NCBI GenBank assembly: GCA_036172245.1
Contig: JAYWIR010000009.1
Coordinates: 3,906,001 to 3,970,000 of the forward strand
Length of the DNA stretch: 64,000 nucleotides
Reading direction: 5' to 3'
Origin: Raillietiella orientalis
Lineage: Eukaryota
The translations under genes were made by a program, and so were the position numbers. Numbering within the stretch: position 1 is the first letter of the stretch; every line of letters starts with the position of its first letter. The notes under the pieces were generated by a model. It was not told the DNA's origin, did no database searches, and worked only from the letters and a program-made list of their open reading frames with translations. This document shows, piece after piece, positions 897-39,675 of this stretch.

Positions 897-2786
897 TTAT
901 AAAGTATCAGCAGGACACAATTTAGGTTCTATTATATTTTTCCATTCAGTACACAGAACATTATCTGATGGTGAATTTTCTTCAAATTCCAAATCAAATT
1001 TTCCTGGAATTTTCTTCACAATTTCTTCTGAAAAAAAAAAAAACAAAAATTGGAACATGACAAAATATGATGAAGGCACAATGAGAAAAACTTTGTCAAC
1101 TAATAAAACACATTTCATTTTGTAACATACCTTCAAGCTGTAAGGAAACTTGATCATTCTGTGAATCATAATTAAGAACTTTGGCTTTCTTAAAGTTGGA
1201 TATTTCTGGGGAGTAATTATCACCCAATTCAAGGATCTAAACATTAGTTGTATTATGATCATAATTCTACAACATACCTTAAAGACAATAACATCACCAT
1301 TACGAGGCACCCCTTGTAATGCAGGCAATAAAAGATACTTAGCATCTGTGTCTGCATATGAAGGTGTATTGGCATTCTTGGAAGCTAGCTTAACAGATGA
1401 TGTACTGCCACAGTTATAAAAGACTGTTGAAACATTGGTTTGTTTTTCATTTTCAGCATGAATTTTCAGCTTAACATCCTTCTTAAAAGCTTTCCGATTC
1501 CTGTTTCGAATAAACACTGGTGCTTCAGCTACCATTTTTAACTGAAGCAAATTATTGAACTTCTCATCTGATACAGACTTTACATTAGTGTTTTCATTTT
1601 CACTTAATACAGGGGTTTCTGGAAAATTTCCTGACCTTACAAAACTTGTCTCTTTACAACTAGAATTATCATTATAACAGTCCCCAGAAGTATTGCTAGT
1701 TTCTTTCATTTCCTCATCACTGCTATCAAAGCGTATGTGCTTACTTTGCTTAAGAGCCGTTCCCATTCGCATTGTATAATTTTTATGAGTAAGTAATGGT
1801 TTATTAACTTCACCATTGTAGTTTATGCCAGAAACTGAGGTTTTGTTACTTTTAGTCCTTTTTCTTTTTTTTTGCTTCAAACCCAATGTAAGCAGATCAA
1901 CATCTGTTAACTGCACTGTATTTGTTTTAGCAGACAGATCACTTAATATCTGTTTATTCACATCACTTAATATCTGTTTATTCACATCACTTGAAGCACA
2001 CAAACTATGCTGAGCAACATTAGAAATAAAAGAATCAGATGACTGTGAACGAAATTCTACATGCTTAGTAGCAGCCTTTTGAGGAGATTTAACAACATAT
2101 TCATGATTATGCTTATTTGCATAACAGACATTGTCTTTCCTGGACAGAACACTGTTATTTAACAATTCTTGCTGATGCAACAAACTCTGAGTTTCAGAAG
2201 AATCGTCAGAAGTACAACCAAGAGGGCTAGATGCAGACATCTGTGGTGCCATGGATATAGCACGTTTCCTTGGAAAAAGTTTCAGTGAAAAACTTTTAAT
2301 CACAAGTTTCTAAATTCAAATCATTTACAGTTAAACACAACTGCACATTTAAATAAAATACTTAAAAAACCTAGATCTGTACATACAAAACCACAGAGTG
2401 GAAACTTTACATGCATTAACGTTAAAACATGATTTCTCACTTTCAGGATTTCAACTGTGTAAACAAAATTACTTGAATATATCCTTGTACAAGTAAATAT
2501 TTTGAATGAAGCATTCGTCCGACGAACATAAATGCACAACAAGCAGATCGTTTTCTTTCAAGATTTTCACATCTTCATTTGGCAGCAGGCAATAACCATC
2601 CATATATATGTGAAAGCATTTCGTATGAACATCGAAAATTTCCAAACGATTGAAAACTGTTTTATAGACCTCGATCAGGGTATCATTTTCCTTAAAATGA
2701 ACCAACAACCACTGATACTTTGGTACGATGCTCGACTGATAGGTGAGTTTCAAATCTAGTCGAACTCTTACACAACTCCTCTCCAT
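897..2786 (-). CDS. COIL: Coilin, copy A (predicted exons 2786-2473, 2268-1278, 1236-1131, 1027-897)
   Basis: N-terminus VRVRLD...WLLV...YMDGYCLLPNEDVKILKENDLLV resembles the coilin N-terminal domain. KHIRF motif is present. The spliced C-terminus YLLLPALQGVPRNGDVIVFK|ILELGDNYSPEISNFKKAKVLNYD...GKFDL resembles the coilin Tudor-like domain. GT-AG introns keep the frame. Confidence 0.85.
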
Positions 2787-5985: not shown

Positions 5986-5988
5986 AGC

Positions 5989-8129: not shown

Positions 8130-9400
8130 GCTTGCACTTCGGGGGCGCAGCAGCGTTCCATGCTCGCGCGTTCCGTAGCAACGCCTCCTGTCTATCTCCC
8201 GTGGCATCTTATGATTTTGAGCGACTGCTGCTGGCCATCTGCAAAGCACCGGTTCCAGAGAGAATGCAAATCTGGAAATGCGGGAAGGAACCGAACCGAA
8301 AGGGAAGAAAACAGGGGTAGGTGAACATAGGCCAAGCGGGGAAAGGACCGAACCTAAGATGAGGAAGCGCGTCCTCCATTCGATCACCTACGGGTTTCTA
8401 TTCAGAGGTGAGCACGTACCGATCGGAACGCGCGCCCACCGTCAAATGGCAGCTGGACAGGCATCCTGACGCCATCTTGGAAACACCGGCTCGTCTCCGT
8501 CGCGTAGCAAAGGGAATCGGGTGGTGCACCGGAAGAGGATTCTCGGACGAGATGGAGACTTGTGGATGAAACCATGGCTATGTGGCGCCGGGAGGGAACT
8601 GCAAAGAGGACGACGCATGGAACGGCAGGCGGAAAACATCGCCGGGTTGCTGAACGCAGCCGAACGTCGCTCCTTCCGACGTCAACGGCTGTCAACAGGA
8701 GCGGGGCGGTCGAGGCTAATGGGGTGGCTGTGGCTCCACCCGTGCGCGTCCCCCTCGAGGGGGAGCGCGTCCGTGAAGTGGTGTTTCCTGCGGTTCGTCC
8801 GCGACCGGCGCTCGTGCGGGAGTGCAGGGAGGACGGGGACGAGCGAGCGAGTCCAACGCGCCGCTCCGGGACTGCCACGGGACGGATCCGTGGTAGACCT
8901 GCGAGGCGGCCCTCGGCGTCCTCGAGCTGCCGAGGGCGGCGACGAATGGACCGACGCGAGCGTGGACGCTATCGTCTGCTGGAGCATCTCGCCACCTTCG
9001 GCTGCCCTCCGCCCTCTCTCTTTCCATTGCTTCCGGGCAAGAACAAGAGGCCACCTATCAGGACGCGCGCTCTCGCCTCTTCTTCGTGGGTTCACCTACG
9101 GGACGTCTCCTCGGAAACGCTCCGTTGCAGAACTCCGTGTCAGGGTGCACCTCGCTCCAGGATCTCGAACAATCCTGAGAAGCAGAAGCGTCCCCCGTAC
9201 GCCCGCGTCCCGACTCCTGCCAGCGCAACCCGTGCCACAGGAGGTACCATGGGCGGCCGTGGTGAGATGGACGGTTGCAGGACGCTGTGAGTCTCGCCGC
9301 GTCCTTGCCCGCAGGCATGAAGGAAGGCGGCCCTCCAGGCAGGAAGACTCCTCGGGAAGTCCGAAGCATTTCCGAGCTCGCGCACCATCGAAGATTGCCG
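8130..9400 (+). mobile_element. Decayed Ty3/gypsy RNase H-integrase relic
   Basis: FERLLLAI, GEHRPS (TDHRPL), RVREVVFPAVRPRPALVRECRE (zinc finger), LLEHLATFGCP (FGxP of the integrase core). Confidence 0.45.
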
Positions 9401-9479
9401 TCACGCGGCGCAGCGTGGCAGCGGCAAGGACTCTCCTGACCGAGGTCACGCACTTTATCCTGTTGCGTCGGATTTCTGC

Positions 9480-11660
9480 GTCATTAGTGAACCTTTTTTT
9501 TTTTCTTTTTTCTTGTTAATGTAAAACTTGATCAGAAAAGCACAGAATTTAGAAACTGGCAGAGGAGATTGGAACTTAATGGCGAACTACCGAGGGAGCG
9601 CATGGATTCTATGCAGCAAATCACTGAAAATAATGAGTAGAAAGGTGTTTGGGGAGCTGTTGAACTGTTTCTATTATTTAACATTTCCGTGATAGTGTTT
9701 CAGTGTTGCTTCGGTCGTTCATTGAGCAATGGAGAGGAGTTGTGTAAGAGTTCGACTAGATTTGAAACTCACCTATCAGTCGAGCATCGTACCAAAGTAT
9801 CAGTGGTTGTTGGTTCATTTTAAGGAAAATGATACCCTGATCGAGGTCTATAAAACAGTTTTCAATCGTTTGGAAATTTTCGATGTTCATACGAAATGCT
9901 TTCACATATATATGGATGGTTATTGCCTGCTGCCAAATGAAGATGTGAAAATCTTGAAAGAAAACGATCTGCTTGTTGTGCATTTATGTTCGTCGGACGA
10001 ATGCTTCATTCAAAATATTTACTTGTACAAGGATATATTCAAGTAATTTTGTTTACACAGTTGAAATCCTGAAAGTGAGAAATCATGTTTTAACGTTAAT
10101 GCATGTAAAGTTTCCACTCTGTGGTTTTGTATGTACAGATCTAGGTTTTTTAAGTATTTTATTTAAATGTGCAGTTGTGTTTAACTGTAAATGATTTGAA
10201 TTTAGAAACTTGTGATTAAAAGTTTTTCACTGAAACTTTTTCCAAGGAAACGTGCTATATCCATGGCACCACAGATGTCTGCATCTAGCCCTCTTGGTTG
10301 TACTTCTGACGATTCTTCTGAAACTCAGAGTTTGTTGCATCAGCAAGAATTGTTAAATAACAGTGTTCTGTCCAGGAAAGACAATGTCTGTTATGCAAAT
10401 AAGCATAATCATGAATATGTTGTTAAATCTCCTCAAAAGGCTGCTACTAAGCATGTAGAATTTCGTTCACAGTCATCTGATTCTTTTATTTCCAATGTTG
10501 CTCAGCATAGTTTGTGTGCTTCAAGTGATGTGAATAAACAGATATTAAGTGATCTGTCTGCTAAAACAAATGCAATGCAGTTAACAGATGTTGATCTGCT
10601 TCCATTGGAATTGAAGCAAAAAAAAGGAAAAAGGACTAAAAGTAACAAAACCTCAGTTTCTGGCATAAACTACAATGGTGAAGTTAATAAACCATTACTT
10701 ACTCATAAAAATTATACAATGCGAATGGGAACAGCTCTTAGGCAAAGTAAGCACACTGATAGCAGTGATGAGGAAGTGAAAGAAACTAGCAATACTTCTG
10801 GGGACTGTTATAATGATAATTCTAGTTGTAAAGAGACAGGTTTTGTAAGGCCAGGAAATTTTCCAGAAACCCCTGTATTGAGTGAACGAGAAGAGAATGC
10901 TCATATAAATTCTGCATCAGATGAAACAAGCAATAGTTCTGGGAATTGTTTTTATAATGGTAGTTCTAGTTGTATAGAGACAGCCTCTGTGAGTCCAGGA
11001 AGTTTTCCCAAGAAACCTGTATTTTTTGAAAAAGAAAACAATGCTGATGTCAATTGTGCATTAGATGAAAAGTTCAGTAATTTACTTCAGCTAGAAACAG
11101 ATGCTGATGAACCTCTGTTCATTCAGAAAAAAAATATCAGAAATTTTAAAAAAGATATTACTTTGAAAATTCATGCCGAAAATGAAAAACAGACCAACGT
11201 TTCAACGGTATTTTATAATTGCGGCAGTACATCATCTGTTGAGCTACCATCCAAGAATGTGAATAGCCCTTTGTATGCAAACACAGATGCTAAATATCTT
11301 TTATTGCCTCAATTGCAAGATATACCTCATAATGGTGATGTTGTCTTTAAGGTAAGTTGTAGAATTGTGATCCTAATACAATTCATGTTTAGATCCTTGA
11401 ATTTGGTAATAATTATTGCCCAGAAATATCGAACATTAAGAAAGCCAAGGTTCTTAATTATGATTCACAAGATCATGAAGCTTCTCAAGGTATGTTTCAA
11501 CATGAAATGTATTCTATTAGTTAACGGATTTTTTTAATTATATCTGCATCAGTTCTGGTTGTGATCAACTGTTTTCCTTTTTCAGATGTAAATGTACAGA
11601 AAACTCTAGGAAAATCTGATGCAGAATCTGAAGAAAATTCACCATCGGACAATATTCAGT
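9480..11660. repeat. Right arm of coilin inverted duplication
   Basis: Reverse complement of 3035 downward. It looks identical to about 10490 and is increasingly diverged after that. Confidence 0.95.
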
Positions 11661-11680
11661 GTGCAAATATGGTGCTTTAA
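9729..11680 (+). CDS. COIL: Coilin, copy B (predicted exons 9729-10042, 10247-11351, 11393-11489, 11586-11680); diverged C-terminus
   Basis: Same exon structure as copy A, with intact GT-AG sites and an open spliced frame ending ...SPSDNIQCANMVL-TAA at 11678-11680. It shares about 250 bp of upstream sequence with copy A. Confidence 0.75.
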
Positions 11681-12545
11681 ACTTTTTTTTGTTAAATATT
11701 TGTAATGTAGAAGTATTATCAAAACCATTTATGAGAATGCCACAACTATTGTTATTTAGTCTATTGCTAACTTCCAAAATATTAGTTTGTGCGTTGCTGC
11801 TACTTTCTAGGTAGGTGTCTGGTAAGGAGGAAACGATAAAGTTTTCTGTGTTTTCATTGAAAGTATTCAATTTTGAGTTTGATGTCAGAATTTCTTGAAC
11901 CTTCTCCGATTTTGTAATCAGAGATGTTCCCTTCATTGCATAAATGGATGTAAGAGTAGTTTGAGTACCTTGTGTCAGCATTTTGTTTATTGCAGGGTTT
12001 GTTTTTTTATCACATGCGCTAATCTTTTCTTTTTTCACTTTGAAATCGCTTAAATCATCACTATTACAAAGATCGCCTTTATCAATGTCACCCAATTTAT
12101 TTGCAGCTTCTCTAATCATTTCAGGTACACTCAGCTTGATTTTCTTTTCCGTGTCACTGATATGCACATCCTGCCTTTCGGCGGAATCCAATCCTTTGAG
12201 TAAATCATTTCTGCAAATGTAATTACACAGTTTTTGATAACACTGGATGAGCAATTTCATTTGAACGTTTTCCGTGTAGTCCGAGTAATCCTTGCCACAT
12301 ATGCAACAAGTCTTTGCACAGAGTTTATTATTTCGGCAACTTTTGCAAATGCTATGGTGGCATTTGTTTTCTGCAGGAGAACATGGCTCATCTAAAAGAT
12401 TATCACAAATAACGCATGACAATAACGATCTCAGCGCAGGTATCAACCGCTGAATTTCTTGGATCGTGTGGTTATCATAATCGGGGCTTAAAATCAACCG
12501 ACAAAAGGCAATGTACGAGTTAACTACATTCGCTAGAAACGACAT
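11565..12545 (-). CDS. msl2: Truncated MSL2 copy: RING retained, CXC lost, novel C-terminal tail read from antisense coilin B
   Basis: Identical to the 38287 ORF up to ...LQIFNKK, then KFKAPYLHTEYC...KENS*. The breakpoint is at about 11680, just before the CXC domain. Confidence 0.8.
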   Translation of the reverse strand: MSFLANVVNSYIAFCRLILSPDYDNHTIQEIQRLIPALRSLLSCVICDNLLDEPCSPAENKCHHSICKSCRNNKLCAKTCCICGKDYSDYTENVQMKLLIQCYQKLCNYICRNDLLKGLDSAERQDVHISDTEKKIKLSVPEMIREAANKLGDIDKGDLCNSDDLSDFKVKKEKISACDKKTNPAINKMLTQGTQTTLTSIYAMKGTSLITKSEKVQEILTSNSKLNTFNENTENFIVSSLPDTYLESSSNAQTNILEVSNRLNNNSCGILINGFDNTSTLQIFNKKKFKAPYLHTEYCPMVNFLQILHQIFLEFSVHLHLKKENS

Positions 12546-12749
12546 TTATTGAGAACTACGAGGGCTGTAAACTGTAAGCACGTGCTCTACATCCAATGAT
12601 TAAAATGATACGCTTCACTTTTTGAAAAGGAAACGTATGAAGCGTAAACACAAGGGTACACCGCCGTGCTGCCAGAGTGCCCGCTGCCGTTCCCGCCCGA
12701 ATGGAAGAAAAGATTCCGCTTGCAGGGAATCTTTTCCCTTTGGGCCGGA

Positions 12750-14100
12750 GGGACGTGGCAGCAGCCTTCCAGCGTGCAATGTTCCATTTCCGTTTCTCTC
12801 GCGAAAAGGGCACCTCTTCCGTTTCCACAACACCTCTCCCGGAGGATAACCCTCGTCACTCCCCCCCCCCCCCGCCAACACCATCCATATTTCCTTTCCC
12901 TCCTTCGTCGCGCAAACAGCCACAGCCCCTCCCTCCTCGCAGGCATGCATTCCCGTCCTCTTTGTGCAAAAAGGCACCCCAAGAAACAAACATACACCCT
13001 GCAAGAAGTGCGTGCATCGCATCGACGCACTCTGGAAATGTCCATCCCGACAGCGGGCCCGCTCGACGGAAAAACACCAAGCGCCTGCTTCCTTTCCCCT
13101 CCGGGGCAATCGGAAAACTGCATTCATCCGCAAATCGTGTGTTCATTTGGCAACGATCCTGGCGGAACGCATCCCAGGAAGCAGAAGGAGCAGCGCGGCG
13201 GCCGCACATTCCTCACAAGAAAACGGTTGGCTTGGCTTCCCCAAAGAGAACGAACCCTGCTGCAGTCTCCAAAGTTCCCGGATTCCTCGGGCACTTCCTC
13301 CGCTTTTCCGACAACCGTTTCGTCTGGCTGCTCGACCCAGGATGACCTTCGCTTGCGCCAAGCGCCGCTTTCCTCCCAAGCCACTGCCGGGAAGCAAACG
13401 TCGCAACGGGAAGACACGCAGCACACCTCGGAAAGCCGTGGCGCTTTGCACATTCGACTTGCGGCCGACGAAAGAGTGGATCATCCACCTTCTTCCATTC
13501 CGTACGGCCTCTCCGATTCCAGACGAGCGACTCGATTACCGGTTGAGGCTGCACATTTCATCCTCCGGCCATTTGCGTTTCCATGGCTGTCCCACCAGAG
13601 GGACACGGAAGGAGAAGCACCTCGGCGCGTGCAAACCGCAGGCCTGCAGGGAGAACAGAAAACGCGCCTTCCGCTTGGGCTGCCGACGGTCCATTCTCGG
13701 CGGAAAGCGACCAGGATGCCCGTCTTCCCGGGCAAAAAGTGTGTAACTTTTCGTTTCGGGGAGCGCGCCATCGTTCGCATCGCACCATTTCACGTGAAAG
13801 TGCCTCCCAACGTAGTGGAAACTCGTAAAGAGGGGGTGGGTGGTGAGAAATCGACAGTCTCGACGAAAGCAACCCTCTCCCCCAACCCCGTCGTTTCCCG
13901 GTGATCCAAAGTAGCCCTTTACGACACGTACCGCACTAATAAAGATGTGCAGCAAGTTTGCAAAAGGAATTGACTCTGCAATTAGGAAAGCAATTTACCT
14001 GCTCGCCAAAAGTCTCAGGGAAACAATTCTCCTGTGGGGGAGGGAACTGGGGGGTGGGGGTGGGGGGAAGGAAAGAAAGAGAAAGCAATGCACCGCCGAC
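12750..14100 (-). mobile_element. Decayed non-LTR (RTE-like) reverse transcriptase relic; mirrored at ~36730-38080 (+)
   Basis: Ordered motifs: DCRFLTTHPLFTSFHYVGRHF, WRLQQGS (GxxQG), TRFADEC (FADD), AVGMDISRV...VCFLG. Confidence 0.5.
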
Positions 14101-15099
14101 AGGAGTGGAAAACGCGGAAACGCAAACATCACGAACGAATGCTCGAGTTGCCAAAGGCCGGTTCCTCTTTTTTCCGTCCCCAATCTTTTCAAAGAGTCGT
14201 TTCCTTCACTGCGCTGCGGATGCACGAAGCGAAATGAAAATGTCAACGGGATGTTTGAATCGAACAGGGAAAACTCGAGGGACAGCCCCTCATCCCGCAA
14301 AACAGGACAGACAGCGCTGTTTCGCTATCCCCATGATAGTCCGTTGCTGCTGAACATAATGGAAAGGGAAATAGAGACGATAAGAATCCAAATCAAGCTT
14401 GCCGTTAGATAGGCAACTGGACGGCATCCGTTTCTGCTTCAAGATGGCGTCTTCGACGGATCCTCTCTTGCTTTCCAACATCATGGTGACGGAAATCACC
14501 CGTCCGCGTGCAAGGAAACAGAAAGACCCCCCTTTCCTTCGCTGAGGATTCCGTTCCAACAACCACAAGCAAGCAAGCAAGCAAGAAAGCAAGCAAGAAA
14601 GAAAGAAAGCAAGAAAACGAGGAACAACAACCCACGGGTGGTGCATTCGTGGTTTTGGAATTCTCCTTCACGATGGGAGCTTCCCATTCTTTTCCCTTCC
14701 AAATCGCCGCAGATGGCTTTTCAGTCGCAGCACACAATGCAACCACTGAACGCCCCACCGCAGACGACTGGCAGTAGCAACGGGAGCAGCCCTGTGAAGA
14801 TGGTTACTTCCGTCTATCCTGAGACACGAACGGCACCTCGACCTACCTCACGTGACGAAGCCACGGAAGAGGGGAAAAAAGATGCTGTATGATCATCATT
14901 CCGTTCAGGATGAACCGAATCTGTCCACGAACGGGAACGGAAAATGGTAAGCGAAGCTTCACCTGGAGAAATCTACCACCAGCCCGGAGTGGTCGTCGAA
15001 GCAGCAGCAAAAGACAGAGAGGGAACGGGGATCCTTTCCCGATCAGCCTTTGAACCTCTGTGGGAAAGGCAGACAATTCGTGAGAAGCAGGAAGAAATG

Positions 15100-15870
15100 A
15101 TCACGAGCGATTCCGTCCAACGCTCGGTGGCTGTGCGGTCTCGTGGCAGCGGGCTGCGGCTTCCCGGTAGGCATGTCCACGATCAAGGCGTGGAAAACCC
15201 TCCGAGCCCTCCCCCCCAACCACGCACAGCGGTTTCCCTTCTTCCTCTCGCCATGATTTGTTTTTGTCTTTTTCCTTTTCCTACGCCCTTCCGTGGCTGC
15301 CTCGCATGCATCCTCCGATGCCAGCGAATGCGTCTCTCGTTAGAAACGGACGGGCGTTGCTGGCCGTTTGGTTTCCCACGTCGCAGGGTTCCCATCCCGC
15401 GGCCCGCCTCGTTGATCGTTCGCACATGCCGCACGATGCAGAAATTCGTTCGCCCCGAAATTTCAGGAAATGCAGAGGAGGAATTTGGCGCGACTTTCCA
15501 CTGTGCAGCACACTTTCCAGCGAATGCGATTCGTTCGTTTGTCGTTTCTTCGATGCGAAACTTCGCCCGGCCGACGCGTCCACTTCGGACTCGTTCTTTG
15601 CCCGCCGCGGCAAACGGCGTTCCGCAGCAACGTCGAATCGGATCCTTCGACAGAGTCGTCGATCCATCTGGCGAAACGGCGTCATGCCCAATGCACTTCT
15701 TGCACAGTGAGGTCCGTCCTTCGAGCAGAACGTTTCCTTCTTTGGCCGACATGAGGCAGTTCCATCAGGCGGCCACGTCGCGTCGCGCGTTGCCTTTGAC
15801 CGTCGCCACGCAGCAGATGCACCCTTCACCGAAGAAGATTCCTTTCCGATTGCTTCAGGTGCTCATCGGA
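15100..15870 (+). mobile_element. Possible decayed LTR-element integrase relic; mirrored at ~34960-35730 (-)
   Basis: CILRCQR, PEISGNAEEEF, PAAANGVPQQR (PQxNGxxER), PSPKKIPFRLL. Confidence 0.35.
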
Positions 15871-15899
15871 ATACGATCGTCTGCCAATTGGGATTCGAC

Positions 15900-16900
15900 G
15901 AGCGCTTCCTTCGCAAGTCGCCTCGCTGCCTCACTCTGGATGATCTTCCAGGAGGAAGCGCTTTCCACGAAAGGATTCCATTTTTTTGGACTTTTTGGCA
16001 AACTCCGCATCCGTCTGCAGCGCAACCAGACGAGCTGGTGCGAATCACACTACCTTGCATCCATTTGAATGTGGCGGTGGTGGTGACCGAGCCGCGAGTC
16101 TTGGATATGCGTTTCATGAAAAGCCCCGGGATGAAAGGCGCGTGCGCGCACCATGGCAAACGCGAAAGAATCGCAAGAGGAAGAAACGTCCGCGCACATG
16201 AGAAAGGGTTGGGCACGGAAGCATCCGTTTCGAACTTGGCGAGGTCGATTCGGGTACGGCAAGGCTTGTCCTCGTCCGCCTCCACGTTCTTCCGCTTTCG
16301 AAGGTACGCTGCATCCGGCACACCCGGCTCGCAACCTTCGTTATGGAATCGGCTCGCTGTGCCGATGAGAATGGTCTTCGCACCGAGTTGACCGCGGAGC
16401 AAATCTTGGCGCGTCTCCTAGCCGAATCGGCGATTGCTGAAAGATTGTTTCAATCTCACTCATCCTTGCAAGGCATTTCTTGCTTCCTTGGCAACCAACA
16501 AGAGCGAAGCCGCTGCCGCAGGCTTGCAACTCACCTCGCCCCGCACGTCCAGCAACGAAGGACGCTTTGCCAGCCGCCGCAGGTGCGCAAAGGCCATCAT
16601 CGCATGCGTAACCACGCAGCGCTGACCACTTTTCTCGAACGATCACGTTCCCAATATGGTGCGAAACGTGCGGGACGCGCGGATGCGAGGCCGTGCAAGC
16701 AAGCGCTTCCTCGCGCAACGACTTCGCCGTGCGTCGAACCGGCCGTGACCTTGCGCGCTGCTCGCGGCAAGGTCACGGCGGCGAAACGACGACGAAGCGA
16801 ATGGCCTCGTTGCGCTGTCGGAGCTGGTGCTCAATCACCGTGGTGTCCACGGTGATTGCAAGGTTCAGCATGCCTCTCGCCGGATTCGCCATGTCGCGGA
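15900..16900 (+). mobile_element. Possible decayed non-LTR RT relic; mirrored at ~33930-34930 (-)
   Basis: SGTPGSQPSLWN (cf. GxPQGSxLxPxLWN) followed by AAAAGLQLTSPRT (cf. GLxLNxxKT). Confidence 0.35.
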
Positions 16901-17177
16901 TGTCGTGGGTTTAGCGGGCCGGAGTTTTCCGCCTGAAACCGAGGGATCCATTCGCTTGGGGGGGGCGGGCACAAGGAAGGAAAAGTAGCTGGGAGGCAGG
17001 ATCAAGCTCCGTGGAGTTTGCCCGGCATCACCCTGCCGCGCGCGTGCGCTTTCCCTCAGGGGCCGTTCGCGGTCAAGGGCAAATGCGGAAGTTCTGGAAC
17101 AGGGGCGCATCCGACGCGAGCGGAAAAGCAGTGTGCCCTGCTGCTGCTGCTTTTCTCCGTAAAGGGAAAGGGAAAGG

Positions 17178-17209
17178 GAAGAAGAAGAAGAAGAAGAAGA
17201 AGAAGAAGA
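17178..17209 (+). repeat. (GAA)n microsatellite; mirrored at ~33623-33654
   Basis: Direct read of the sequence. Confidence 0.95.
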
Positions 17210-17399
17210 CTTTGACCCGCATCGCCTCCCCGGTAAGGACGCTCGTCCTCGCCATCGCGGCAATGCGTTCGTTGGAAGGAATCGAACGTTGACTGCGGAA
17301 CAGGGGTGCTCCCGACTGTCCACTCTGCTTTTCTGCCTGGGGCTCGCCAGCGGGAACTGCGTAGTCTGCAACCGCCACGGGATATCTCTTTCCCGCAAC

Positions 17400-19050
17400 G
17401 CAGGACGATCGCTGGAGAACTTTTGTCGATTGGGACATCCAGGGACTGCCGCCGTGTGTAGCTTTGAGCCCGAGGACCCCGCGGGGATGCGTTCCGATGG
17501 GAGGCCGGCCATCGGCGGAAAACGAGCGAGCACGCTGTGCAGCTCGCGCATCCGCGTGCGAAAGAGAGCGAATTGCAAGTGGCCTTGAGGATGAGCGTGC
17601 GAGGCTGAATGGAGAAGAGGAAGAACTTGGCGACCACCTGCAACACCTGAAATGAAGAGCAGCCGAGCGGTTGCGTGCCTTCGAGCTCTTTCGGAACCGC
17701 TCACTCCTTGTGGTCCAGCCGGGCGCGGGATTCAGCACGCCAACGGCGCTTCGGTCGGCCGGCCGAGTTCGGTTGCCGGTTCGACTCTGCGAGATGCATC
17801 GCGTAGACAGTCTCTTGCTTTTTCAATTTTCCTCGAAGAGGAAAAAAGTCCGACCCTCGCGGACGACGCCTCCGTCTCGTTCTGCTGCTTTTCGACCAGC
17901 GTTCGCCGCCGCCACATTCGATGCCCGAGGAAAACGCGCTCATCTGTTCGGGCGTACTTCAGCCACTCGAGGAAAGGACTTTCGAGTAAAGTTCGCTGGA
18001 CCATCGCGTCAGCTGTCCTTCTTCAGCAAGGTCGTGTGGTCGCAGTCACGCCTGCAACGACTCAGCCCCATCATCCCGAAAGACGAACTGCCAGTTCTTT
18101 CGCCTCGGCTTGGACGAGCGCACGCTACCATCTCCGTGCGGAGCAGCAACGCGGCTGCAGGAAGGCGGCAACGGAAGCAAAATGGCACGACAAAATGGCC
18201 GCAAAGATGTGGGGATTTATCCGCGTCCCCACGGTGGAATAGTTCGCTTTCACGGCCGCTTTCGCGAGCGCTGCGTGCCTCTTTTCCGACCTCGGCACCA
18301 GCTGCCCACCTTCCCGAACCGCCGGTCGCCTGCCTCCCTAGGGGAACGCCGGCTCCGGAGACCGATTGAGCTCGGAAACGGAAACGCGCCCACCGTCTCG
18401 AGGTGTGCGCGATCCGTGCTCGAAAGGAGGGGAAGGGGGGGGGGGGAAGGCAGTTTCGGGATCCTCCTCCGCAAGGGGCCATCCAAGGCAACCAGCGAGT
18501 CGATGCCACCTTCCCGAGCTGACGGGATGCCGAAGGAGGAGCACCCTTTTCTTCTTCCCGTTGTGCCGGTCGTCCCGCATCGCTTGGTGGTTACGATTGC
18601 ATTGCGAGGTCGCTTCCGTTTGCCATGAACCCCGCCCTGTTTTTTTTGCACACCGTTGCGTGCGTTCCTCGTTCCTGCATGGCTCACGCGTGCGTGGATT
18701 TGCTTGGATCGAACGGGAAGAGACTGTCGTGTCCTCCGCTGCATTTCGGGCTTCCGTCAAGCAAGATGAGGACTCGATTTTCGAGGCTGCCCGTTTCCAA
18801 CGCGCACCCTTCTTCAAACTTGCTTTCCCCCCCAACCCGATCCACGCTCCTGGCTCTCGACTGGCCGTGGAGAACTGCCCGCGTTTCGGGTGGGTGGGTG
18901 GCTGCGGCCGCGCGAATCGAAAACCACGTGGATTCGTTCATCCCTTCCCGAATTTATGGATATCTGCGGTCGACTCCTCTCCGATTCTCGGCAAGATGCA
19001 CGGCGTCGTCGGTCGGTTCGTGAATCTTCAGCTGGTGGTAGCACCTCGCG
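17400..19050 (+). mobile_element. Decayed Ty3/gypsy pol relic (RT-RNase H-integrase); mirrored at ~31780-33430 (-)
   Basis: DHLQHLK...ERLRAFEL (RT), IASAVLLQQGRVVAVTPATTQPHHPERR...AWTSARYHL (RNase H), RFQRAP...NPIHAP...WISAVD (integrase), in the expected order. Confidence 0.55.
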
Positions 19051-20565
19051 CAGTGGCGCGGAGGCCCCTTTCCGTCCCGAGTGCGCAGGCGCGTGTCCGT
19101 TGCTTTGCGTGCACCCGCAAGCAAGTAGAGGACGTCCGTGCCGGCTGCCGTCGTGCTTTCTTCGCCGAGCAGCCGTCGGCTGCAGCCGCGATTCGTCGAC
19201 GGACGAGTTCGTGACCTGCGGACTTGCTCGTCCTCGACGCTGCCGTGTTTGAAGTTCCCGGATTGCGCGATGCGCCCGGACTCGGATGAGCCGCAGGGAA
19301 GACGAGGATTGGCACGCGGGTGGGCATCCGCGGTCTCGTTCGACGGCACGGTGCTCCTTGCGTGCTCCTTGAACTCCAGCACCCACACCGTGTTATGGCA
19401 CGTGACGGTGATTCGCTGCTCATCGTCGCCCGCGTGCAAGCGATGCAGTTCCGATTCGTGCAAGCGTTTGCTCCCGAACGACTGGAACACGAAGTGGATG
19501 GTTTGCAGACATCGCTGGTTGTCGAAGTTCCAAATTTTCAGCACCTGGAGATGGAGAACGTGGACGTGAGATGTTCGGGCGGGCGGCGAGGTTTCTCGAG
19601 AGACGTGACCCGTCCTCAGGTTCGAGGAAAGGGAAAGGAAAAGACCGCGAAATTGTGCGAAATTCCGCAAGTTTCCGTGCGTCCGCAAACGCCCGGTCCA
19701 CCAGCCGACGTCTTTCCTGCGTGCGCTCCCCTTCTCTCTTCCCGCTGCTCTCTTGGCAACTCACCGGACTACAAGGGAGTCGTCACTTGACCGCGCGGAG
19801 AGCCGGGAGATTGTGGGCGGAAATCCGGCAACCGCGAGAATGCAGATTCGTTCGGGGAGGTTTGGGCACGCTCGTTCCCGGTCCAGGGAAGCGGTCTGCG
19901 CACTCCTTCTGCCGTCTTCGTTCCCGAAACCCTAGCCGGAAGGGTTGCCGACCGGAAGCGTGCAGTCCGAGGAAAGCGGCTTGTCTGCGCGCCGGTGCAC
20001 GAAAACACCGCGCTAACCCCGGAGAATATTTTGTGCCCCGGAGGCGACGATGCAACCGATTCGCTTGGATGGATGAACCGATGGGCCGATGGGACGTCCG
20101 TCAGGCATCGCATGCGGATGGTGACCACTTTGGAAGAATTTTGGGAGAAGAAGAAAAATTTGGAAGAAAGTTCGTGAAGTGGTAGGCGTGCTCTCTTCCT
20201 TGTGTGGACGGCCTCGCCCGGTACGTTCGTCCGCCTAGTTCGGGCAAGAAGAAGCATCGTGGCGCATCGAAGGCGCCAGATGGGAGCGGTTCGTTGCCCC
20301 TTGCATGCCGCCGTGGCTAACGTGCAAGAAGTGGTGGCTTCGAACAACACTGCATGGCCATGCGTCCCACGTCCGCCGCGCTCTGCGAGCATCGCTTTCT
20401 GCTGCGCAATCCTCGTGCGTGCGTTCTCGGGATGAACGACGCAAAACGCCAAATAGGTGCACGCGCGTCCGCGCACGTGCGCGCAGCGTACGGAGGTGCA
20501 GTTTCCCTTCGAGCATCTTCGCCCGAAACGATTCGGAAAGCACAAGATACGTTCTTTCTTCTCTT

Positions 20566-20608
<43 letters not shown>

Positions 20609-23600
20609 TGTCGGTGTGGGAATTCGCAGTGCGAATTGAACAAGGACGACGAGTGAGCGTGCGCGACCGAAGGATTCCATCCTTCCTTTTTTTTTTTTTT
20701 CTCCTTTTTTATGTTTTCCCGTCTCCTTCGCAAAGACGTGCTGCGATGAGCTTTTCCTTCGCGCCAGAAGATCGGAACTCGAATGGCTCTCGGTGGATCG
20801 ACCTTGACGGTCTGCAAAGAATCGCCGGAAGGCGAGAAGGGACCAGGGGAATCTGCACGTGCGGGGGGCTTCTTCTGTCCGGGTTTCGATGAGCATCCGA
20901 AGTGGCGAGCAACTCTTGACCCGAAGGATCCGAAAATCCGAACCGAATGCAGCCCGAGGCACGGATTCGGCGAATGGCGTGGGATGCCAGGAAGAGCTGC
21001 AACGAGGCCTTCAGTAAGGACTGATTTTCCTTTGCATGTTCGTCTCGTGGGGTACACGGAAGGAAGGCCATTTTCTTACCGCCCACGAGAAAGTCTTCCC
21101 ATCATCCATTCATCCGCACATCCACATTTGCGTACAGGCGTTGTACAGGAAACGCACTACCAAGTAAGTGCGAGACGGTGCGCGCATGGAAACGCACCTA
21201 CTCGGATACGCCAGAAAGGATCTCGGATCTCCGTTTGTTTTTCGTGTCGCCTTGCTCGCGTGCGTTCCCTGCTGCTGCACGTGATCATGCAATCCGTGAG
21301 GCGTGCTCCGTGATCTCGGTCCACTGGGGAATCTGCGTTGCCTGGAAATTGGGTTCGCGATGAGAATCCTTCGCCGCTGGGCTTGTTCGCACGGGCGGGT
21401 TCGTTCGTGTCATCCTGGCTCGGTGCCGCCGGTTCGTGCGTATCCACGAAACGCTCCCGAATCAAAGAAAGGAATACCGAAATGTTAAAGCAACGAAACG
21501 CCCTTTCCAACGTCGTCGGGAAGATCTCGCAGCTTGCGAGCGAAGAAATCCGAGCGGTTCCGCGAGTGCTGGGATCGTCGTCGATGGATGGTGATTTGTG
21601 ACGGGTTGGTTGCAAATGTTCCTGCACTGGCTGCTGACACCGGAAAGAGTTTGTTTACGTGGCACAAGCGCGCAGCCGTCCGCCACCGCGTTCTCCACAT
21701 CTGTCCTACCACCCAGTCGAGAAAGCAGTAACGGTTCTATTACTCGTTCCTAGGGATTTGTAGAGTTCCTCTCTACTCCATCTCGTCTCCGTCCTCTTGG
21801 CGCGTTTCCTCGTTCGCTGGATAGCATGATTCTGGACCCGTTCCGAGGATCTTTTTTCGCTTGCTTTTTTCGCACCCCACCCATTCTTCCCCATCTTCCC
21901 CGCAAACAAATTCCGACTGTCGATGACTGCGCTCTCCGCGTTTGCACCGTTCATTCGAGGATGGGTGAAGAGCTTCTAAAGAAGCCAAGAATAGCGACAT
22001 AGAAGTTGATCATTTCTACTACATAATAGAGCGGAAACCTAGGGCATTGCATGGAAATACGGAGACCATTAGCCACGAATTAACGATAACCGATGGCATT
22101 CATCCGAGGTCGGCTTCGATCCGAGTGCGACTGTGAGCTACGAATTGAACCATTTGGCTTCCACCCTCACATGGTGGATTGCAATCCAGTTTCCGGTCGG
22201 AAGCACTAGTTTCCCGTCTTCAATGGAATCCAGATATGTGCGTGAGCACTGGACGGTAGCTTGAAACGCAACCGGAGCAGGCTGTGTGTATGGGAAACCG
22301 CTATTGCCCCTGGACGTGTGTGCATTCGGAGGAGGAGCAATGGACGGGCGTTTTATCAATACGCCCATGGACGAAAACGCGAGCTTTCAAGTGCAGTCGC
22401 GGCAGACAGTGTTGTTGGGTTGCACTGCTGAAAGAGAAAGCAGGGTCGTTGGGACACTGCGACTACCTTCATATTCAGAACATTCATTATGAAGATACTT
22501 TGCATAAAAGGTCAACAAACGGACCCAAAACGATATTTTTGTATGGAATGCGAAAGCTATGCAGTAGAGTAGTAGTTGTCTATTCTGTGGGAGTCTCAAT
22601 AGTAAATGTAATAAAAGTGTTGTATTATAGGGACGAATAAAGATTAAATGTTGCAATGATCTTTGCATTGATCTTTGAATTGCTTCTGAACACATCTTGA
22701 CATCTGCACCCTGTCAAAAGGAGAGGAAAAAAAAAAAGGCTCTTTCGAAGTGATTTTGATCTCGGAGCTGGAGGGCAAACGTCCCCATTTTGGCTCTAGG
22801 GAAATTAACGTAGGGTGGCACGCTCTGATCGCTTACCCGCTCTTTGTCGATGCTCATGAAAATGTCCCTTTCTTCTAGCACGGCGACGTCGGAAATCTGG
22901 TCTCTGTGGCCGTGGACGAAGTGGGTCGGTCTCTTCTGGACGAAGATGTTCCAGATTCGGAGAACGGCGTCATAGCCACCGGAGACGACGGCCTTCCTGC
23001 TCGCATGGAAGGCGAAACAGGAGGCGCCCTGGGTAGAGACGTCGCCCTTGGCGGTTCTCCTTTCTTCCTTCCTTCCCGTCTCACCTGCTCGATTTTCATG
23101 ATGTATCGCAGGTCCTCCGAGTGCAGCCTCGTGAAGACGAGTGAATCTGACGGATTCCGGCTGCAGCTGATCATCATGTTGCTTTCTTCCGCGAAGTGGA
23201 TCCTCTCTACTCCCGAAGAATGCACTCTGGGTAGGTACCTGCAACCAGCCGGGTTGTTTTGGGAAAGGAGCTGTGCAAGAGTGATCGCCAATCCAAAAGA
23301 GGGTCGCAAGGCACCTTCCAGCTGATGGTGGTGGCATCGGCTGCGCCGCAACCTCCGGGGACTTTGGAAGGAATGCCGCTGACCCCGAACAGCCCGATCC
23401 CGCCTTTGATGTCCCCCCAGCAGAAGCGAACAGCTTTCGGTCCCAGCCTCTCCTCCGCCAACGGGGACGTGTCCAGACAAAGAGGTATGGCGGGCATGCT
23501 GACGATCACGTGGCGCCTCGGCGAAGCATCTTCCAGCACGTGGAGGAGGCGCATCTCACCCAAGGAAGTGGCGTACGCCAGCATCTCGGCTCCGCGCAGG

Positions 23601-28389: not shown

Positions 28390-30223
28390 TGCTTTCTCTT
28401 TCAGCAGTGCAACCCAACAACACTGTCTGCCGCGACTGCACTTGAAAGCTCGCGTTTTCGTCCATGGGCGTATTGATAAAACGCCCGTCCATTGCTCCTC
28501 CTCCGAATGCACACACGTCCAGGGGCAATAGCGGTTTCCCATACACACAGCCTGCTCCGGTTGCGTTTCAAGCTACCGTCCAGTGCTCACGCACATATCT
28601 GGATTCCATTGAAGACGGGAAACTAGTGCTTCCGACCGGAAACTGGATTGCAATCCACCATGTGAGGGTGGAAGCCAAATGGTTCAATTCGTAGCTCACA
28701 GTCGCACTCGGATCGAAGCCGACCTCGGATGAATGCCATCGGTTATCGTTAATTCGTGGCTAATGGTCTCCGTATTTCCATGCAATGCCCTAGGTTTCCG
28801 CTCTATTATGTAGTAGAAATGATCAACTTCTATGTCGCTATTCTTGGCTTCTTTAGAAGCTCTTCACCCATCCTCGAATGAACGGTGCAAACGCGGAGAG
28901 CGCAGTCATCGACAGTCGGAATTTGTTTGCGGGGAAGATGGGGAAGAATGGGTGGGGTGCGAAAAAAGCAAGCGAAAAAAGATCCTCGGAACGGGTCCAG
29001 AATCATGCTATCCAGCGAACGAGGAAACGCGCCAAGAGGACGGAGACGAGATGGAGTAGAGAGGAACTCTACAAATCCCTAGGAACGAGTAATAGAACCG
29101 TTACTGCTTTCTCGACTGGGTGGTAGGACAGATGTGGAGAACGCGGTGGCGGACGGCTGCGCGCTTGTGCCACGTAAACAAACTCTTTCCGGTGTCAGCA
29201 GCCAGTGCAGGAACATTTGCAACCAAACCGTCACAAATCACCATCCATCGACGACGATCCCAGCACTCGCGGAACCGCTCGGATTTCTTCGCTCGCAAGC
29301 TGCGAGATCTTCCCGACGACGTTGGAAAGGGCGTTTCGTTGCTTTAACATTTCGGTATTCCTTTCTTTGATTCGGGAGCGTTTCGTGGATACGCACGAAC
29401 CGGCGGCACCGAGCCAGGATGACACGAACGAACCCGCCCGTGCGAACAAGCCCAGCGGCGAAGGATTCTCATCGCGAACCCAATTTCCAGGCAACGCAGA
29501 TTCCCCAGTGGACCGAGATCACGGAGCACGCCTCACGGATTGCATGATCACGTGCAGCAGCAGGGAACGCACGCGAGCAAGGCGACACGAAAAACAAACG
29601 GAGATCCGAGATCCTTTCTGGCGTATCCGAGTAGGTGCGTTTCCATGCGCGCACCGTCTCGCACTTACTTGGTAGTGCGTTTCCTGTACAACGCCTGTAC
29701 GCAAATGTGGATGTGCGGATGAATGGATGATGGGAAGACTTTCTCGTGGGCGGTAAGAAAATGGCCTTCCTTCCGTGTACCCCACGAGACGAACATGCAA
29801 AGGAAAATCAGTCCTTACTGAAGGCCTCGTTGCAGCTCTTCCTGGCATCCCACGCCATTCGCCGAATCCGTGCCTCGGGCTGCATTCGGTTCGGATTTTC
29901 GGATCCTTCGGGTCAAGAGTTGCTCGCCACTTCGGATGCTCATCGAAACCCGGACAGAAGAAGCCCCCCGCACGTGCAGATTCCCCTGGTCCCTTCTCGC
30001 CTTCCGGCGATTCTTTGCAGACCGTCAAGGTCGATCCACCGAGAGCCATTCGAGTTCCGATCTTCTGGCGCGAAGGAAAAGCTCATCGCAGCACGTCTTT
30101 GCGAAGGAGACGGGAAAACATAAAAAAGGAGAAAAAAAAAAAAAAGGAAGGATGGAATCCTTCGGTCGCGCACGCTCACTCGTCGTCCTTGTTCAATTCG
30201 CACTGCGAATTCCCACACCGACA

Positions 30224-30266
<43 letters not shown>

Positions 30267-33200
30267 AAGAGAAGAAAGAACGTATCTTGTGCTTTCCGAA
30301 TCGTTTCGGGCGAAGATGCTCGAAGGGAAACTGCACCTCCGTACGCTGCGCGCACGTGCGCGGACGCGCGTGCACCTATTTGGCGTTTTGCGTCGTTCAT
30401 CCCGAGAACGCACGCACGAGGATTGCGCAGCAGAAAGCGATGCTCGCAGAGCGCGGCGGACGTGGGACGCATGGCCATGCAGTGTTGTTCGAAGCCACCA
30501 CTTCTTGCACGTTAGCCACGGCGGCATGCAAGGGGCAACGAACCGCTCCCATCTGGCGCCTTCGATGCGCCACGATGCTTCTTCTTGCCCGAACTAGGCG
30601 GACGAACGTACCGGGCGAGGCCGTCCACACAAGGAAGAGAGCACGCCTACCACTTCACGAACTTTCTTCCAAATTTTTCTTCTTCTCCCAAAATTCTTCC
30701 AAAGTGGTCACCATCCGCATGCGATGCCTGACGGACGTCCCATCGGCCCATCGGTTCATCCATCCAAGCGAATCGGTTGCATCGTCGCCTCCGGGGCACA
30801 AAATATTCTCCGGGGTTAGCGCGGTGTTTTCGTGCACCGGCGCGCAGACAAGCCGCTTTCCTCGGACTGCACGCTTCCGGTCGGCAACCCTTCCGGCTAG
30901 GGTTTCGGGAACGAAGACGGCAGAAGGAGTGCGCAGACCGCTTCCCTGGACCGGGAACGAGCGTGCCCAAACCTCCCCGAACGAATCTGCATTCTCGCGG
31001 TTGCCGGATTTCCGCCCACAATCTCCCGGCTCTCCGCGCGGTCAAGTGACGACTCCCTTGTAGTCCGGTGAGTTGCCAAGAGAGCAGCGGGAAGAGAGAA
31101 GGGGAGCGCACGCAGGAAAGACGTCGGCTGGTGGACCGGGCGTTTGCGGACGCACGGAAACTTGCGGAATTTCGCACAATTTCGCGGTCTTTTCCTTTCC
31201 CTTTCCTCGAACCTGAGGACGGGTCACGTCTCTCGAGAAACCTCGCCGCCCGCCCGAACATCTCACGTCCACGTTCTCCATCTCCAGGTGCTGAAAATTT
31301 GGAACTTCGACAACCAGCGATGTCTGCAAACCATCCACTTCGTGTTCCAGTCGTTCGGGAGCAAACGCTTGCACGAATCGGAACTGCATCGCTTGCACGC
31401 GGGCGACGATGAGCAGCGAATCACCGTCACGTGCCATAACACGGTGTGGGTGCTGGAGTTCAAGGAGCACGCAAGGAGCACCGTGCCGTCGAACGAGACC
31501 GCGGATGCCCACCCGCGTGCCAATCCTCGTCTTCCCTGCGGCTCATCCGAGTCCGGGCGCATCGCGCAATCCGGGAACTTCAAACACGGCAGCGTCGAGG
31601 ACGAGCAAGTCCGCAGGTCACGAACTCGTCCGTCGACGAATCGCGGCTGCAGCCGACGGCTGCTCGGCGAAGAAAGCACGACGGCAGCCGGCACGGACGT
31701 CCTCTACTTGCTTGCGGGTGCACGCAAAGCAACGGACACGCGCCTGCGCACTCGGGACGGAAAGGGGCCTCCGCGCCACTGCGCGAGGTGCTACCACCAG
31801 CTGAAGATTCACGAACCGACCGACGACGCCGTGCATCTTGCCGAGAATCGGAGAGGAGTCGACCGCAGATATCCATAAATTCGGGAAGGGATGAACGAAT
31901 CCACGTGGTTTTCGATTCGCGCGGCCGCAGCCACCCACCCACCCGAAACGCGGGCAGTTCTCCACGGCCAGTCGAGAGCCAGGAGCGTGGATCGGGTTGG
32001 GGGGGAAAGCAAGTTTGAAGAAGGGTGCGCGTTGGAAACGGGCAGCCTCGAAAATCGAGTCCTCATCTTGCTTGACGGAAGCCCGAAATGCAGCGGAGGA
32101 CACGACAGTCTCTTCCCGTTCGATCCAAGCAAATCCACGCACGCGTGAGCCATGCAGGAACGAGGAACGCACGCAACGGTGTGCAAAAAAAACAGGGCGG
32201 GGTTCATGGCAAACGGAAGCGACCTCGCAATGCAATCGTAACCACCAAGCGATGCGGGACGACCGGCACAACGGGAAGAAGAAAAGGGTGCTCCTCCTTC
32301 GGCATCCCGTCAGCTCGGGAAGGTGGCATCGACTCGCTGGTTACCTTGGATGGCCCCTTGCGGAGGAGGATCCCGAAACTGCCTTCCCCCCCCCCCCTTC
32401 CCCTCCTTTCGATCACGGATCGCGCACACCTCGAGACGGTGGGCGCGTTTCCGTTTCCGAGCTCAATCGGTCTCCGGAGCCGGCGTTCCCCTAGGGAGGC
32501 AGGCGACCGGCGGTTCGGGAAGGTGGGCAGCTGGTGCCGAGGTCGGAAAAGAGGCACGCAGCGCTCGCGAAAGCGGCCGTGAAAGCGAACTATTCCACCG
32601 TGGGGACGCGGATAAATCCCCACATCTTTGCGGCCATTTTGTCGTGCCATTTTGCTTCCGTTGCCGCCTTCCTGCAGCCGCGTTGCTGCTCCGCACGGAG
32701 ATGGTAGCGTGCGCTCGTCCAAGCCGAGGCGAAAGAACTGGCAGTTCGTCTTTCGGGATGATGGGGCTGAGTCGTTGCAGGCGTGACTGCGACCACACGA
32801 CCTTGCTGAAGAAGGACAGCTGACGCGATGGTCCAGCGAACTTTACTCGAAAGTCCTTTCCTCGAGTGGCTGAAGTACGCCCGAACAGATGAGCGCGTTT
32901 TCCTCGGGCATCGAATGTGGCGGCGGCGAACGCTGGTCGAAAAGCAGCAGAACGAGACGGAGGCGTCGTCCGCGAGGTTCGGACTTTTTTCCTCTTCGAG
33001 GAAAATTGAAAAAGCAAGAGACTGTCTACGCGATGCATCTCGCAGAGTCGAACCGGCAACCGAACTCGGCCGGCCGACCGAAGCGCCGTTGGCGTGCTGA
33101 ATCCCGCGCCCGGCTGGACCACAAGGAGTGAGCGGTTCCGAAAGAGCTCGAAGGCACGCAACCGCTCGGCTGCTCTTCATTTCAGGTGTTGCAGGTGGTC

Positions 33201-39151: not shown

Positions 39152-39675
39152 CAAGAAAATCTTATAAAGACAGCAAATCCTTGAAGATAAAAAAAGGATG
39201 TAGATGTGGAAATGCTGCACCCACTCCAGGAAAATTAACATGTTGTGGACAAAGGTGTCCATGTTATGTTGATGCTAAGGCTTGTAATGACTGTCGGTGC
39301 AGAGGGTGCCGTAATCCTTTTCGTTCTGGTGGCAAAAAAATAAGACTAAATTTCCTAGATTCTTTTTCTAACAAGGAACCAGCTTATGATAGTCATTCCA
39401 CAATTCCGGATCATAATCCCATGAATAATATGCTCCTGACCTTCAATCAGCCTTTGTTTCCTGGGGCTTCCTTGCACCAATCATATAATTTAGCTGAGCA
39501 GGACAACTATGAATCAGCAGAATATGCACTAATTGGAGGATCAAGTTTGGTTAATATGAATAACCAACAAATAGGAAAACATCCCATGAACTTCCCAATA
39601 ATTCCCTCCTCAACCCCTAAGAGAGATGTGATTTTTTCTTCTTTTCCCGATAGTGATGAACTGGACTTTGATTAG
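38287..39675 (+). CDS. msl2: E3 ubiquitin ligase MSL2 (male-specific lethal 2 homolog), intronless, 462 aa
   Basis: N-terminal RING (LSCVICDNLL...CHHSICKSC...C...DY.EN.Q...L.QCYQKLC) and CXC domain KGCRCGNAAPTPGKLTCCGQRCPCY...CNDCRCRGCRNP. Confidence 0.93.
   Translation: MSFLANVVNSYIAFCRLILSPDYDNHTIQEIQRLIPALRSLLSCVICDNLLDEPCSPAENKCHHSICKSCRNNKLCAKTCCICGKDYSDYTENVQMKLLIQCYQKLCNYICRNDLLKGLDSAERQDVHISDTEKKIKLSVPEMIREAANKLGDIDKGDLCNSDDLSDFKVKKEKISACDKKTNPAINKMLTQGTQTTLTSIYAMKGTSLITKSEKVQEILTSNSKLNTFNENTENFIVSSLPDTYLESSSNAQTNILEVSNRLNNNSCGILINGFDNTSTLQIFNKKSSRKSYKDSKSLKIKKGCRCGNAAPTPGKLTCCGQRCPCYVDAKACNDCRCRGCRNPFRSGGKKIRLNFLDSFSNKEPAYDSHSTIPDHNPMNNMLLTFNQPLFPGASLHQSYNLAEQDNYESAEYALIGGSSLVNMNNQQIGKHPMNFPIIPSSTPKRDVIFSSFPDSDELDFD

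Follow-up and report, generated by a model that had tools for sequence, protein, structure and literature searches.

We analysed a 64,000-nucleotide (nt) stretch of the genome of Raillietiella orientalis (assembly GCA_036172245.1, contig JAYWIR010000009.1, positions 3,906,001 to 3,970,000 of the forward strand; hereafter the window, to which all coordinates refer), in which two inverted coilin paralogs, here termed coilin A and coilin B, lie in the same neighborhood as a full-length msl2 gene and a truncated, inverted copy of msl2 that abuts the stop codon of coilin B. A preliminary description of this DNA had proposed that the coilin B transcript is positioned to carry antisense msl2 as its 3′ untranslated region (UTR) and that the rearrangement, with a putative housekeeping promoter driving coilin B, could have created a repressor of msl2 acting through double-stranded RNA (dsRNA) and small interfering RNAs (siRNAs). 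The sequence behind the coilin B stop (11684-12545) matches the reverse complement of msl2 38287-39148 at 862 of 862 positions (0/862 mismatches), and the junction lies at the stop itself; consequently, whatever 3′ UTR coilin B has would be antisense to msl2 throughout. To this we add a feature that the preliminary description lacked, namely that the truncated msl2 copy keeps its promoter and is a convergent partner of coilin B. The structural premise of the earlier proposal is right and stronger than stated: its observation is confirmed, and its interpretation is partly supported.

The protein encoded by full-length msl2 was recognized in Pfam through zf-RING_10 (E = 3.8e-18) and MSL2-CXC (E = 5.6e-16) domains, and the gene has an AATAAA signal 142 nt past its stop. 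A homolog search gave 378 matches at E ≤ 1e-5; among the 120 listed, nearly all of those with a source name are called MSL2 or male-specific lethal 2. Among the matches listed, the best alignments covering at least a quarter of the query show 29-44% identity, and identities of up to 86% are limited to the CXC stretch, which amounts to 11-17% of the query. A comparison of this protein with metagenomes matched 216 pattern stretches, none of which is a relative. The truncated copy retains the zf-RING_10 domain (E = 9.5e-19) and has lost MSL2-CXC; its 39-residue tail results from antisense reading through coilin B exon 4, with a 95-nt overlap of the two open reading frames (ORFs). Its upstream sequence is identical to that of the full copy for 10 kb, with the whole promoter retained. 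On the minus strand, the ATTAAA immediately behind its stop (11533-11538) is followed by AATAAA at 11305 as the next canonical signal, and with these two signals the mRNA of truncated msl2 would extend across coilin B exon 4 in the antisense direction.

Coilin B, with its ATG at 9729, has exons at 9729-10042, 10247-11351, 11393-11489 and 11586-11680, separated by introns of 204, 41 and 96 nt, all three of which (3/3) have GT..AG boundaries. The choice of the 41-nt intron is right because exon 3, in either copy, matches Tudor_Coilin only in the frame that it provides. Exon 1, which is identical in coilin A and coilin B, matches Coilin_N (PF15862; E = 2.2e-8, 34.5 bits against a cut-off of 32.9), and exon 3 matches Tudor_Coilin at 29.1 bits in coilin A and 20.7 bits in coilin B against a cut-off of 27, the exons having been scanned as fragments; exon 4 alone, from either copy, gave no Pfam match. 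Several smaller features of these genes can be recorded here. The 41-nt intron (11352-11392 in coilin B, 1237-1277 in coilin A), which is very short for an animal, is kept in both, and in both copies one reading frame stays open across introns 2 and 3. Exon 2 of coilin B contains an in-frame tandem duplication (10782-11070; a 144-nt unit present twice, 78% matches, adding 49 codons), and coilin A contains an in-frame 24-nt repeat encoding SDVNKQIL (1959-2000).

Table 1. Features of the coilin/msl2 locus, in positions of the 64,000-nt window.
Feature	Position	Strand	Remarks
Full-length msl2	38287..39675	+	Single open frame, 462 amino acids (aa), RING and CXC
Truncated msl2 copy	11565..12545	-	287 aa of msl2 plus 39-aa tail; stop 11565-11567
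ATTAAA after truncated msl2	11533..11538	-	27 nt past stop
Coilin B coding region	9729..11680	+	4 exons, 536 aa, stop TAA 11678-11680
Coilin A, full-length paralog	897..2786	-	513 aa, exon plan as coilin B
Upstream region of coilin B in common with coilin A	9447..9728	+	From alignment and composition
Older inverted duplication	coilin A 897-3070; coilin B 9447-11680	-; +	
Would-be coilin B 3′ UTR	11684..12545	+	Exact reverse complement of msl2 codons 1-287
First canonical hexamer after coilin B stop, ATTAAA	12599..12604	+	In 5′ leader/promoter region of truncated msl2
Variant hexamers GATAAA (11835) and CATAAA (11939)	11835..11944	+	Candidate weak 3′-end sites
Left palindrome arm, derived copy	11684..22442		Both ends are junctions found nowhere else
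Right palindrome arm, source copy	28390..39148		Continuous with msl2 3′ part and segment X2
Outer breakpoint of left arm	11677..11690		AACTTT, then T run
Segment X, 1,387 nt	4599-5985; inverted at 27842-29228; partial at 21604-22442		

How much of this antisense sequence a coilin B transcript would carry depends on where it ends. Between 11681 and 12598, neither AATAAA nor ATTAAA occurs on the plus strand, as the preliminary description had reported together with the weak variants GATAAA and CATAAA, to which we add an AGTAAA at 12199. From this it had derived an antisense tail of about 870 nt, and here the evidence is less favorable. A span of 918 nt without a canonical hexamer arises in 29% of 5,000 shuffles, and in the AT-rich flank at 39149-64000 gaps of at least 918 nt between canonical hexamers make up 8 of 41 on the plus and 9 of 44 on the minus strand; the absence is within chance. 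Coilin A, for its part, has its first canonical poly(A) hexamer 387 nt past the stop. The 50 nt that follow the variant hexamers GATAAA at 11835 and CATAAA at 11939 are U/GU-rich (T 42-48%, G+T 68%) and more like a downstream element than the sequence that follows the canonical sites. A coilin B 3′ UTR of ~175-290 nt would accordingly seem at least as likely as one of 920 nt. What stands of the earlier claim is that any such UTR is antisense to msl2 (0/862 mismatches), and what is weak is the argument for the length of the tail, which had been read from the missing hexamers. Because of the positions of the signals on the two strands, the transcripts of the truncated msl2/coilin B pair would be convergent and overlapping whichever poly(A) sites are used.

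The sequence that follows coilin B is one arm of a large palindrome, the two arms of which are 10,759 nt long, flank a spacer of 5,947 nt of unique sequence and are identical at 10,754 of 10,759 positions (99.95%). The 5 substitutions all fall at 16957-21605 (against 29227-33875 in the other arm), within the inner half, which leaves the outer 5.27 kb, msl2 included, identical; with n = 5 sites, this clustering is suggestive at best. We take the left arm to be the copy because the right arm is continuous with its surroundings at both ends, passing into the rest of msl2 on one side and, in the manner of X at 4599-5985, into segment X2 on the other, and the junctions of the left arm are unique. 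That the coilin B stop coincides with the palindrome breakpoint, another claim of the preliminary description, holds: the ungapped repeat arm begins at 11684 and, if a 1-nt difference in the T run is allowed, the similarity to msl2 reaches ~11680, inside the stop codon. AACTTT and the T run are common to the post-stop sequence of coilin A, the coilin B junction and antisense msl2, and the run itself is T8 in the left arm against T7 in the full msl2 copy. The coilin B stop may be the ancestral coilin stop or may have been made by the junction; where a breakpoint cuts short an AT-rich ORF, a stop codon nearby is expected.

This palindrome is one of three inverted duplications with different centers in the window, the others being the coilin A/B pair and segment X. 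The right junction of segment X (5986-6048) is a quasi-palindrome that has been extended to a near-perfect 60-nt palindrome, which we interpret as the signature of a template switch (fold-back). At the source, the hairpin at 27767-27877 has the stem TTTGC/GCAAA and the loop GGAG, and in the 60-nt palindrome at 5986-6048 this loop is inverted. Palindromes subject to gene conversion and inverted duplications made by template switches are known with arms more than 99.9% identical, a unique spacer and microhomology junctions. The locus is like these in its arm identity, unique spacer, microhomology and the quasi-palindrome made perfect at 5986-6048, and unlike them in being small (10.8-kb arms) and in lying in an ordinary gene-dense housekeeping region with no tie to a sex chromosome. 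The msl2 arms are more than 99.9% identical around a unique spacer, as in palindromes kept uniform by gene conversion, and their identity may reflect either youth or gene conversion.

A different history is indicated for the coilin pair. The 249 bp before the coilin B ATG (9480-9728) have no mismatch to coilin A (0/249), in agreement with the ~250 bp of shared upstream region in the preliminary description; the 33 bp at 9447-9479 are diverged, with weaker coilin A/B similarity, and upstream of 9447 lies unrelated GC-rich DNA. From this 5′ end, the mismatches run from 0/249 and 2/1,077 through a part of ~97% identity to one of 79-87% identity in the 3′ part, and the synonymous divergence (dS, Nei-Gojobori) rises correspondingly from 0.008 to 0.058 to 0.568 in the 5′ to 3′ direction. 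This gradient indicates that the duplication is old and that its promoter and 5′ half, nearest the spacer, have recently undergone gene conversion, and it is a pattern that no assembler can make. In the diverged part, the ratio of non-synonymous to synonymous divergence (dN/dS) of coilin B against coilin A is ~0.35 (0.196/0.568), and the differences in coding length between the two are all multiples of 3 (5/5; 24, 6, 147, 3 and 9 nt), with intron 3 differing by 7 nt. Its 536-aa ORF and its splice sites are intact. These findings argue that coilin B remained a coding gene through most of its past, and an active promoter is therefore likely. Homolog searches of a protein collection with the msl2 protein and with the DHX33 protein encoded elsewhere in the window point to an arthropod-like animal and gave no close relative, and a 36-nt string from coilin B exon 4 had 0 matches in metagenomes. 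The coilin A/B substitutions are left unassigned to either copy because there is no outgroup.

Taking these observations together, we hold with moderate confidence that the junction behind coilin B is a real, very recent inverted duplication, and that it is most likely a structural by-product of recent origin, either neutral or slightly harmful, in which a potential for dsRNA lies latent. In this scenario, a 10.76-kb piece comprising the msl2 promoter region and msl2 codons 1-287 would have been duplicated in inverted orientation and attached, through AACTTT/T-run microhomology, directly at the end of the older paralog coilin B, as the latest of the three inverted duplications at the locus. 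The product would be a zero-distance convergent pair made up of coilin B and a truncated, RING-only msl2. Both units are predicted to be transcribed, given that each has the same proximal promoter as its intact paralog, and the coilin B mRNA probably does not run for 870 nt but ends at the weak sites that lie ~175-290 nt into msl2. The dsRNA potential would be latent and not that of an evolved regulator. In favor of a real structure, the arms are distinct copies, with 5 substitutions in 10,759 nt and a 1-nt difference in the T run, and the older inverted duplications at the locus (coilin A/B, and segment X in three copies with its fold-back junction) cannot, by our reading of their sequences, be assembly products.

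Several points weigh against this interpretation. A neutral by-product is the default reading. Coilin B has changed conserved Tudor residues (GKFDL to GKSDA) and is without the last ~12 codons of coilin A, a conserved W included, and it may already be decaying and silent. If one region was threaded twice, its heterozygous sites, divided over the two arms, could account for the 5 differences. Among the contig pieces listed (8 of 27) from an alignment described below, none bridges 9480 or 11683/11684, and the junction rests on the assembly. The last two points belong to an explanation that we regard as unlikely though of real weight, in which chimeric or fold-back long reads, or amplified DNA, caused the upstream region of msl2 to be traversed twice and the left arm is absent from this place. 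On that explanation, and with the same low likelihood, coilin B would have a different 3′ flank and there would be only one msl2. Near-perfect arms (10,754/10,759) and two further segments at or near 100% identity with sharp edges speak for it, and fold-back microstructure of the kind seen at 5986-6048 is also made by strand-displacement amplification. Against it, there are four distinct novel junctions within 18 kb (4598/4599, 5985/5986, 11683/11684 and 22442/22443), each of which would require chimeric reads more than once; unique sequence fills the 5.9-kb spacer, in contrast to an adapter-sized loop; substitutions, and not homopolymer length alone, distinguish the arms; and the diverged coilin arms show a genuine inverted duplication earlier at the same locus.

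The alignment in question used a sequencing run, X1 (possibly DNA, in the form of contigs; 13% of sampled words), which may derive from the very sample that was assembled. It placed 17 short contigs on positions 1-20000 of the window, 10 of them at an identity of at least 99%; 8 of the 27 pieces and 6 of the 21 loose ends are listed. Among the listed pieces, those at 3026-3133 and 12589-12849 have no mismatch, and they show that the upstream edge of coilin A and the AT-to-GC edge upstream of msl2 exist outside the text of the assembly.

Granted a real junction, the convergent arrangement invites the reading advanced in the preliminary description, in which coilin B transcripts reading through into antisense msl2 pair with the mRNA of msl2 or of truncated msl2, and the resulting dsRNA is processed by Dicer into siRNAs that lower msl2 as a repressor in trans. 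We consider this very improbable. It draws on 862 nt that are perfectly complementary to either msl2 copy and on a convergent pair with zero spacing, each member of which shares its proximal promoter sequence with its intact paralog, and precedents for endogenous siRNAs (endo-siRNAs) from convergent 3′ overlaps and from inverted gene duplications are available in Drosophila. However, the missing-hexamer argument for a long tail is within chance, and an arm divergence of 0.05% is too young for any sign of selection. Outside Drosophila, msl2 is not known to be dose-critical or sex-specific, which also counts against the model. In its most far-reaching form, a single mutation would have yielded a self-contained trigger of RNA interference (RNAi), with convergent transcription generating dsRNA that spans msl2 codons 1-287 as well as coilin B exon 4, and with siRNAs that tune or silence intact msl2 in trans, and perhaps coilin B; we give this version just as little credence. 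If it were true, an arthropod outside the drosophilids would have gained, in this RNAi trigger, a newly born and polymorphic regulator of its MSL complex.

Comparison with known systems places the locus among several kinds of antisense arrangement. In mouse oocytes, pseudogenes give rise to antisense RNAs and endo-siRNAs. The locus differs from such pseudogene siRNAs in that its antisense strand would come from the 3′ UTR of a neighboring coding gene and not from a pseudogene promoter. At the Suppressor of Stellate/Stellate system of Drosophila melanogaster, a rearranged paralog transcribed in antisense from a foreign promoter silences its homolog, in a setting of a tandem array, PIWI-interacting RNAs (piRNAs) and genetic conflict; none of the latter three features is seen at the msl2/coilin B locus. 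Convergent 3′ overlaps are established sources of endo-siRNAs in Drosophila cell lines, and inverted gene duplications are likewise established sources in Drosophila, in the portions of the literature cited here (PMC4079977 for the former; PMC10292708 and PMC10317233 for the latter). As in the Drosophila loci of natural antisense transcripts in cis (cis-NATs) that yield endo-siRNAs, two protein-coding units stand tail to tail with complementary 3′ regions (PMC4079977, as excerpted). Unlike in those loci, the overlap was here made by duplication and also matches the intact full msl2 in trans, and the animal is not a drosophilid; the transcribed overlap itself is predicted from the DNA. Hairpin RNA (hpRNA) loci, such as those of Drosophila simulans that silence X-linked drivers, resemble it in the inverted duplication of part of a gene, from which RNA complementary to the parent can arise (PMC10292708 and PMC10317233, in the parts drawn on). 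In an hpRNA both arms lie in one transcript, whereas here 5.9 kb separate two arms of 10.7 kb, of which one falls within the coilin B unit; therefore, dsRNA would need two separate transcripts. Consistently, self-comparison of the window found no inverted repeat with both arms inside 9480-12604, every partner arm being 6-22 kb away. The RNAs of the human psiPPM1K pseudogene offer a further likeness, as a truncated copy there gives RNA complementary to the parent mRNA (PMC3616710, in the excerpt relied on).

The truncated copy could also act at the level of protein, with the antisense overlap being incidental. MSL2 contacts MSL1 through its RING domain, and a RING-only fragment (287 aa plus the 39-aa tail) might compete for MSL1 without binding DNA. 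In Drosophila, MSL2 and the coiled-coil domain of MSL1 interact and form the core of the complex, and the CXC domain binds DNA, according to the cited portions of four reports (PMC13764204, PMC11658772, PMC2879509 and PMC4248295). The intact ORF with its ATG, the retention of zf-RING_10 together with the loss of MSL2-CXC, the identical upstream region and the poly(A) hexamer 27 nt past the stop are all compatible with such a product. Convergent transcription of coilin B could, on the other hand, reduce the expression of truncated msl2, and we judge an effect of this kind to be very improbable, slightly more so than the siRNA repressor.

A GC-rich block extends from 4599 to ~38230 (~33 kb, about 50-62% GC), broken only by the AT-rich coilin B/truncated-msl2 insert (9447-12650). 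Its observed/expected (o/e) ratios are 1.0-1.06 for CpG and 0.31-0.53 for TpA, and its flanks are AT-rich (35% GC, in a 30-40% context) with a CpG o/e of 0.52. The block contains many ORFs of 250-418 codons, open in all frames, and the GC content at the three codon positions (GC1/GC2/GC3) is flat. We rejected these long ORFs as genes, since none of the 107 ORFs of at least 110 aa (0/107) has a Pfam match except for one weak WD40-like piece, and the GC1/GC2/GC3 profile is flat. The block was likewise rejected as a transition-hypermutated copy of AT-rich DNA, the purine/pyrimidine 28-mers giving 21 hits (several in overlapping runs) against 1-10 in shuffles. It looks like a giant, CpG-island-like non-coding block. 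The WD40 or beta-propeller-like ORF (22717-23505, minus strand) lies in the spacer of the palindrome; its best Pfam E-value is 1.8e-6, below all curated cut-offs, it has no codon-position GC bias, and it may be a decayed fragment or a chance match. Scans of the window for Rfam families and for tRNAs gave 0 and 0 hits. Beyond full-length msl2 (39676-64000) is a compact set of housekeeping genes, namely TPPII (minus), phosphomannose isomerase (plus), PDCD10 (plus), a DHX33-like helicase (minus) and a PH/RhoGEF gene (minus). TPPII is convergent with full-length msl2 at a distance of ~0.9 kb, and the DHX33-like helicase shows ~50% identity to homologs that are spread over arthropods and vertebrates.

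With respect to its kind, the locus would be an antisense overlap made by the inverted duplication of a gene fragment, a kind already known. Should it prove silent, or an error of the assembly, it is no more than an ordinary oddity of structure. Given a real junction and transcription of both units, it would exemplify, at a very young stage (0.05% arm divergence), the insertion of a gene fragment in antisense behind the stop codon of another gene. Rearrangements of this sort are believed to supply the raw material for antisense and siRNA regulators. In that event, both parent genes are intact nearby for comparison, and the production of siRNAs and any effect on expression would be testable before selection acts.

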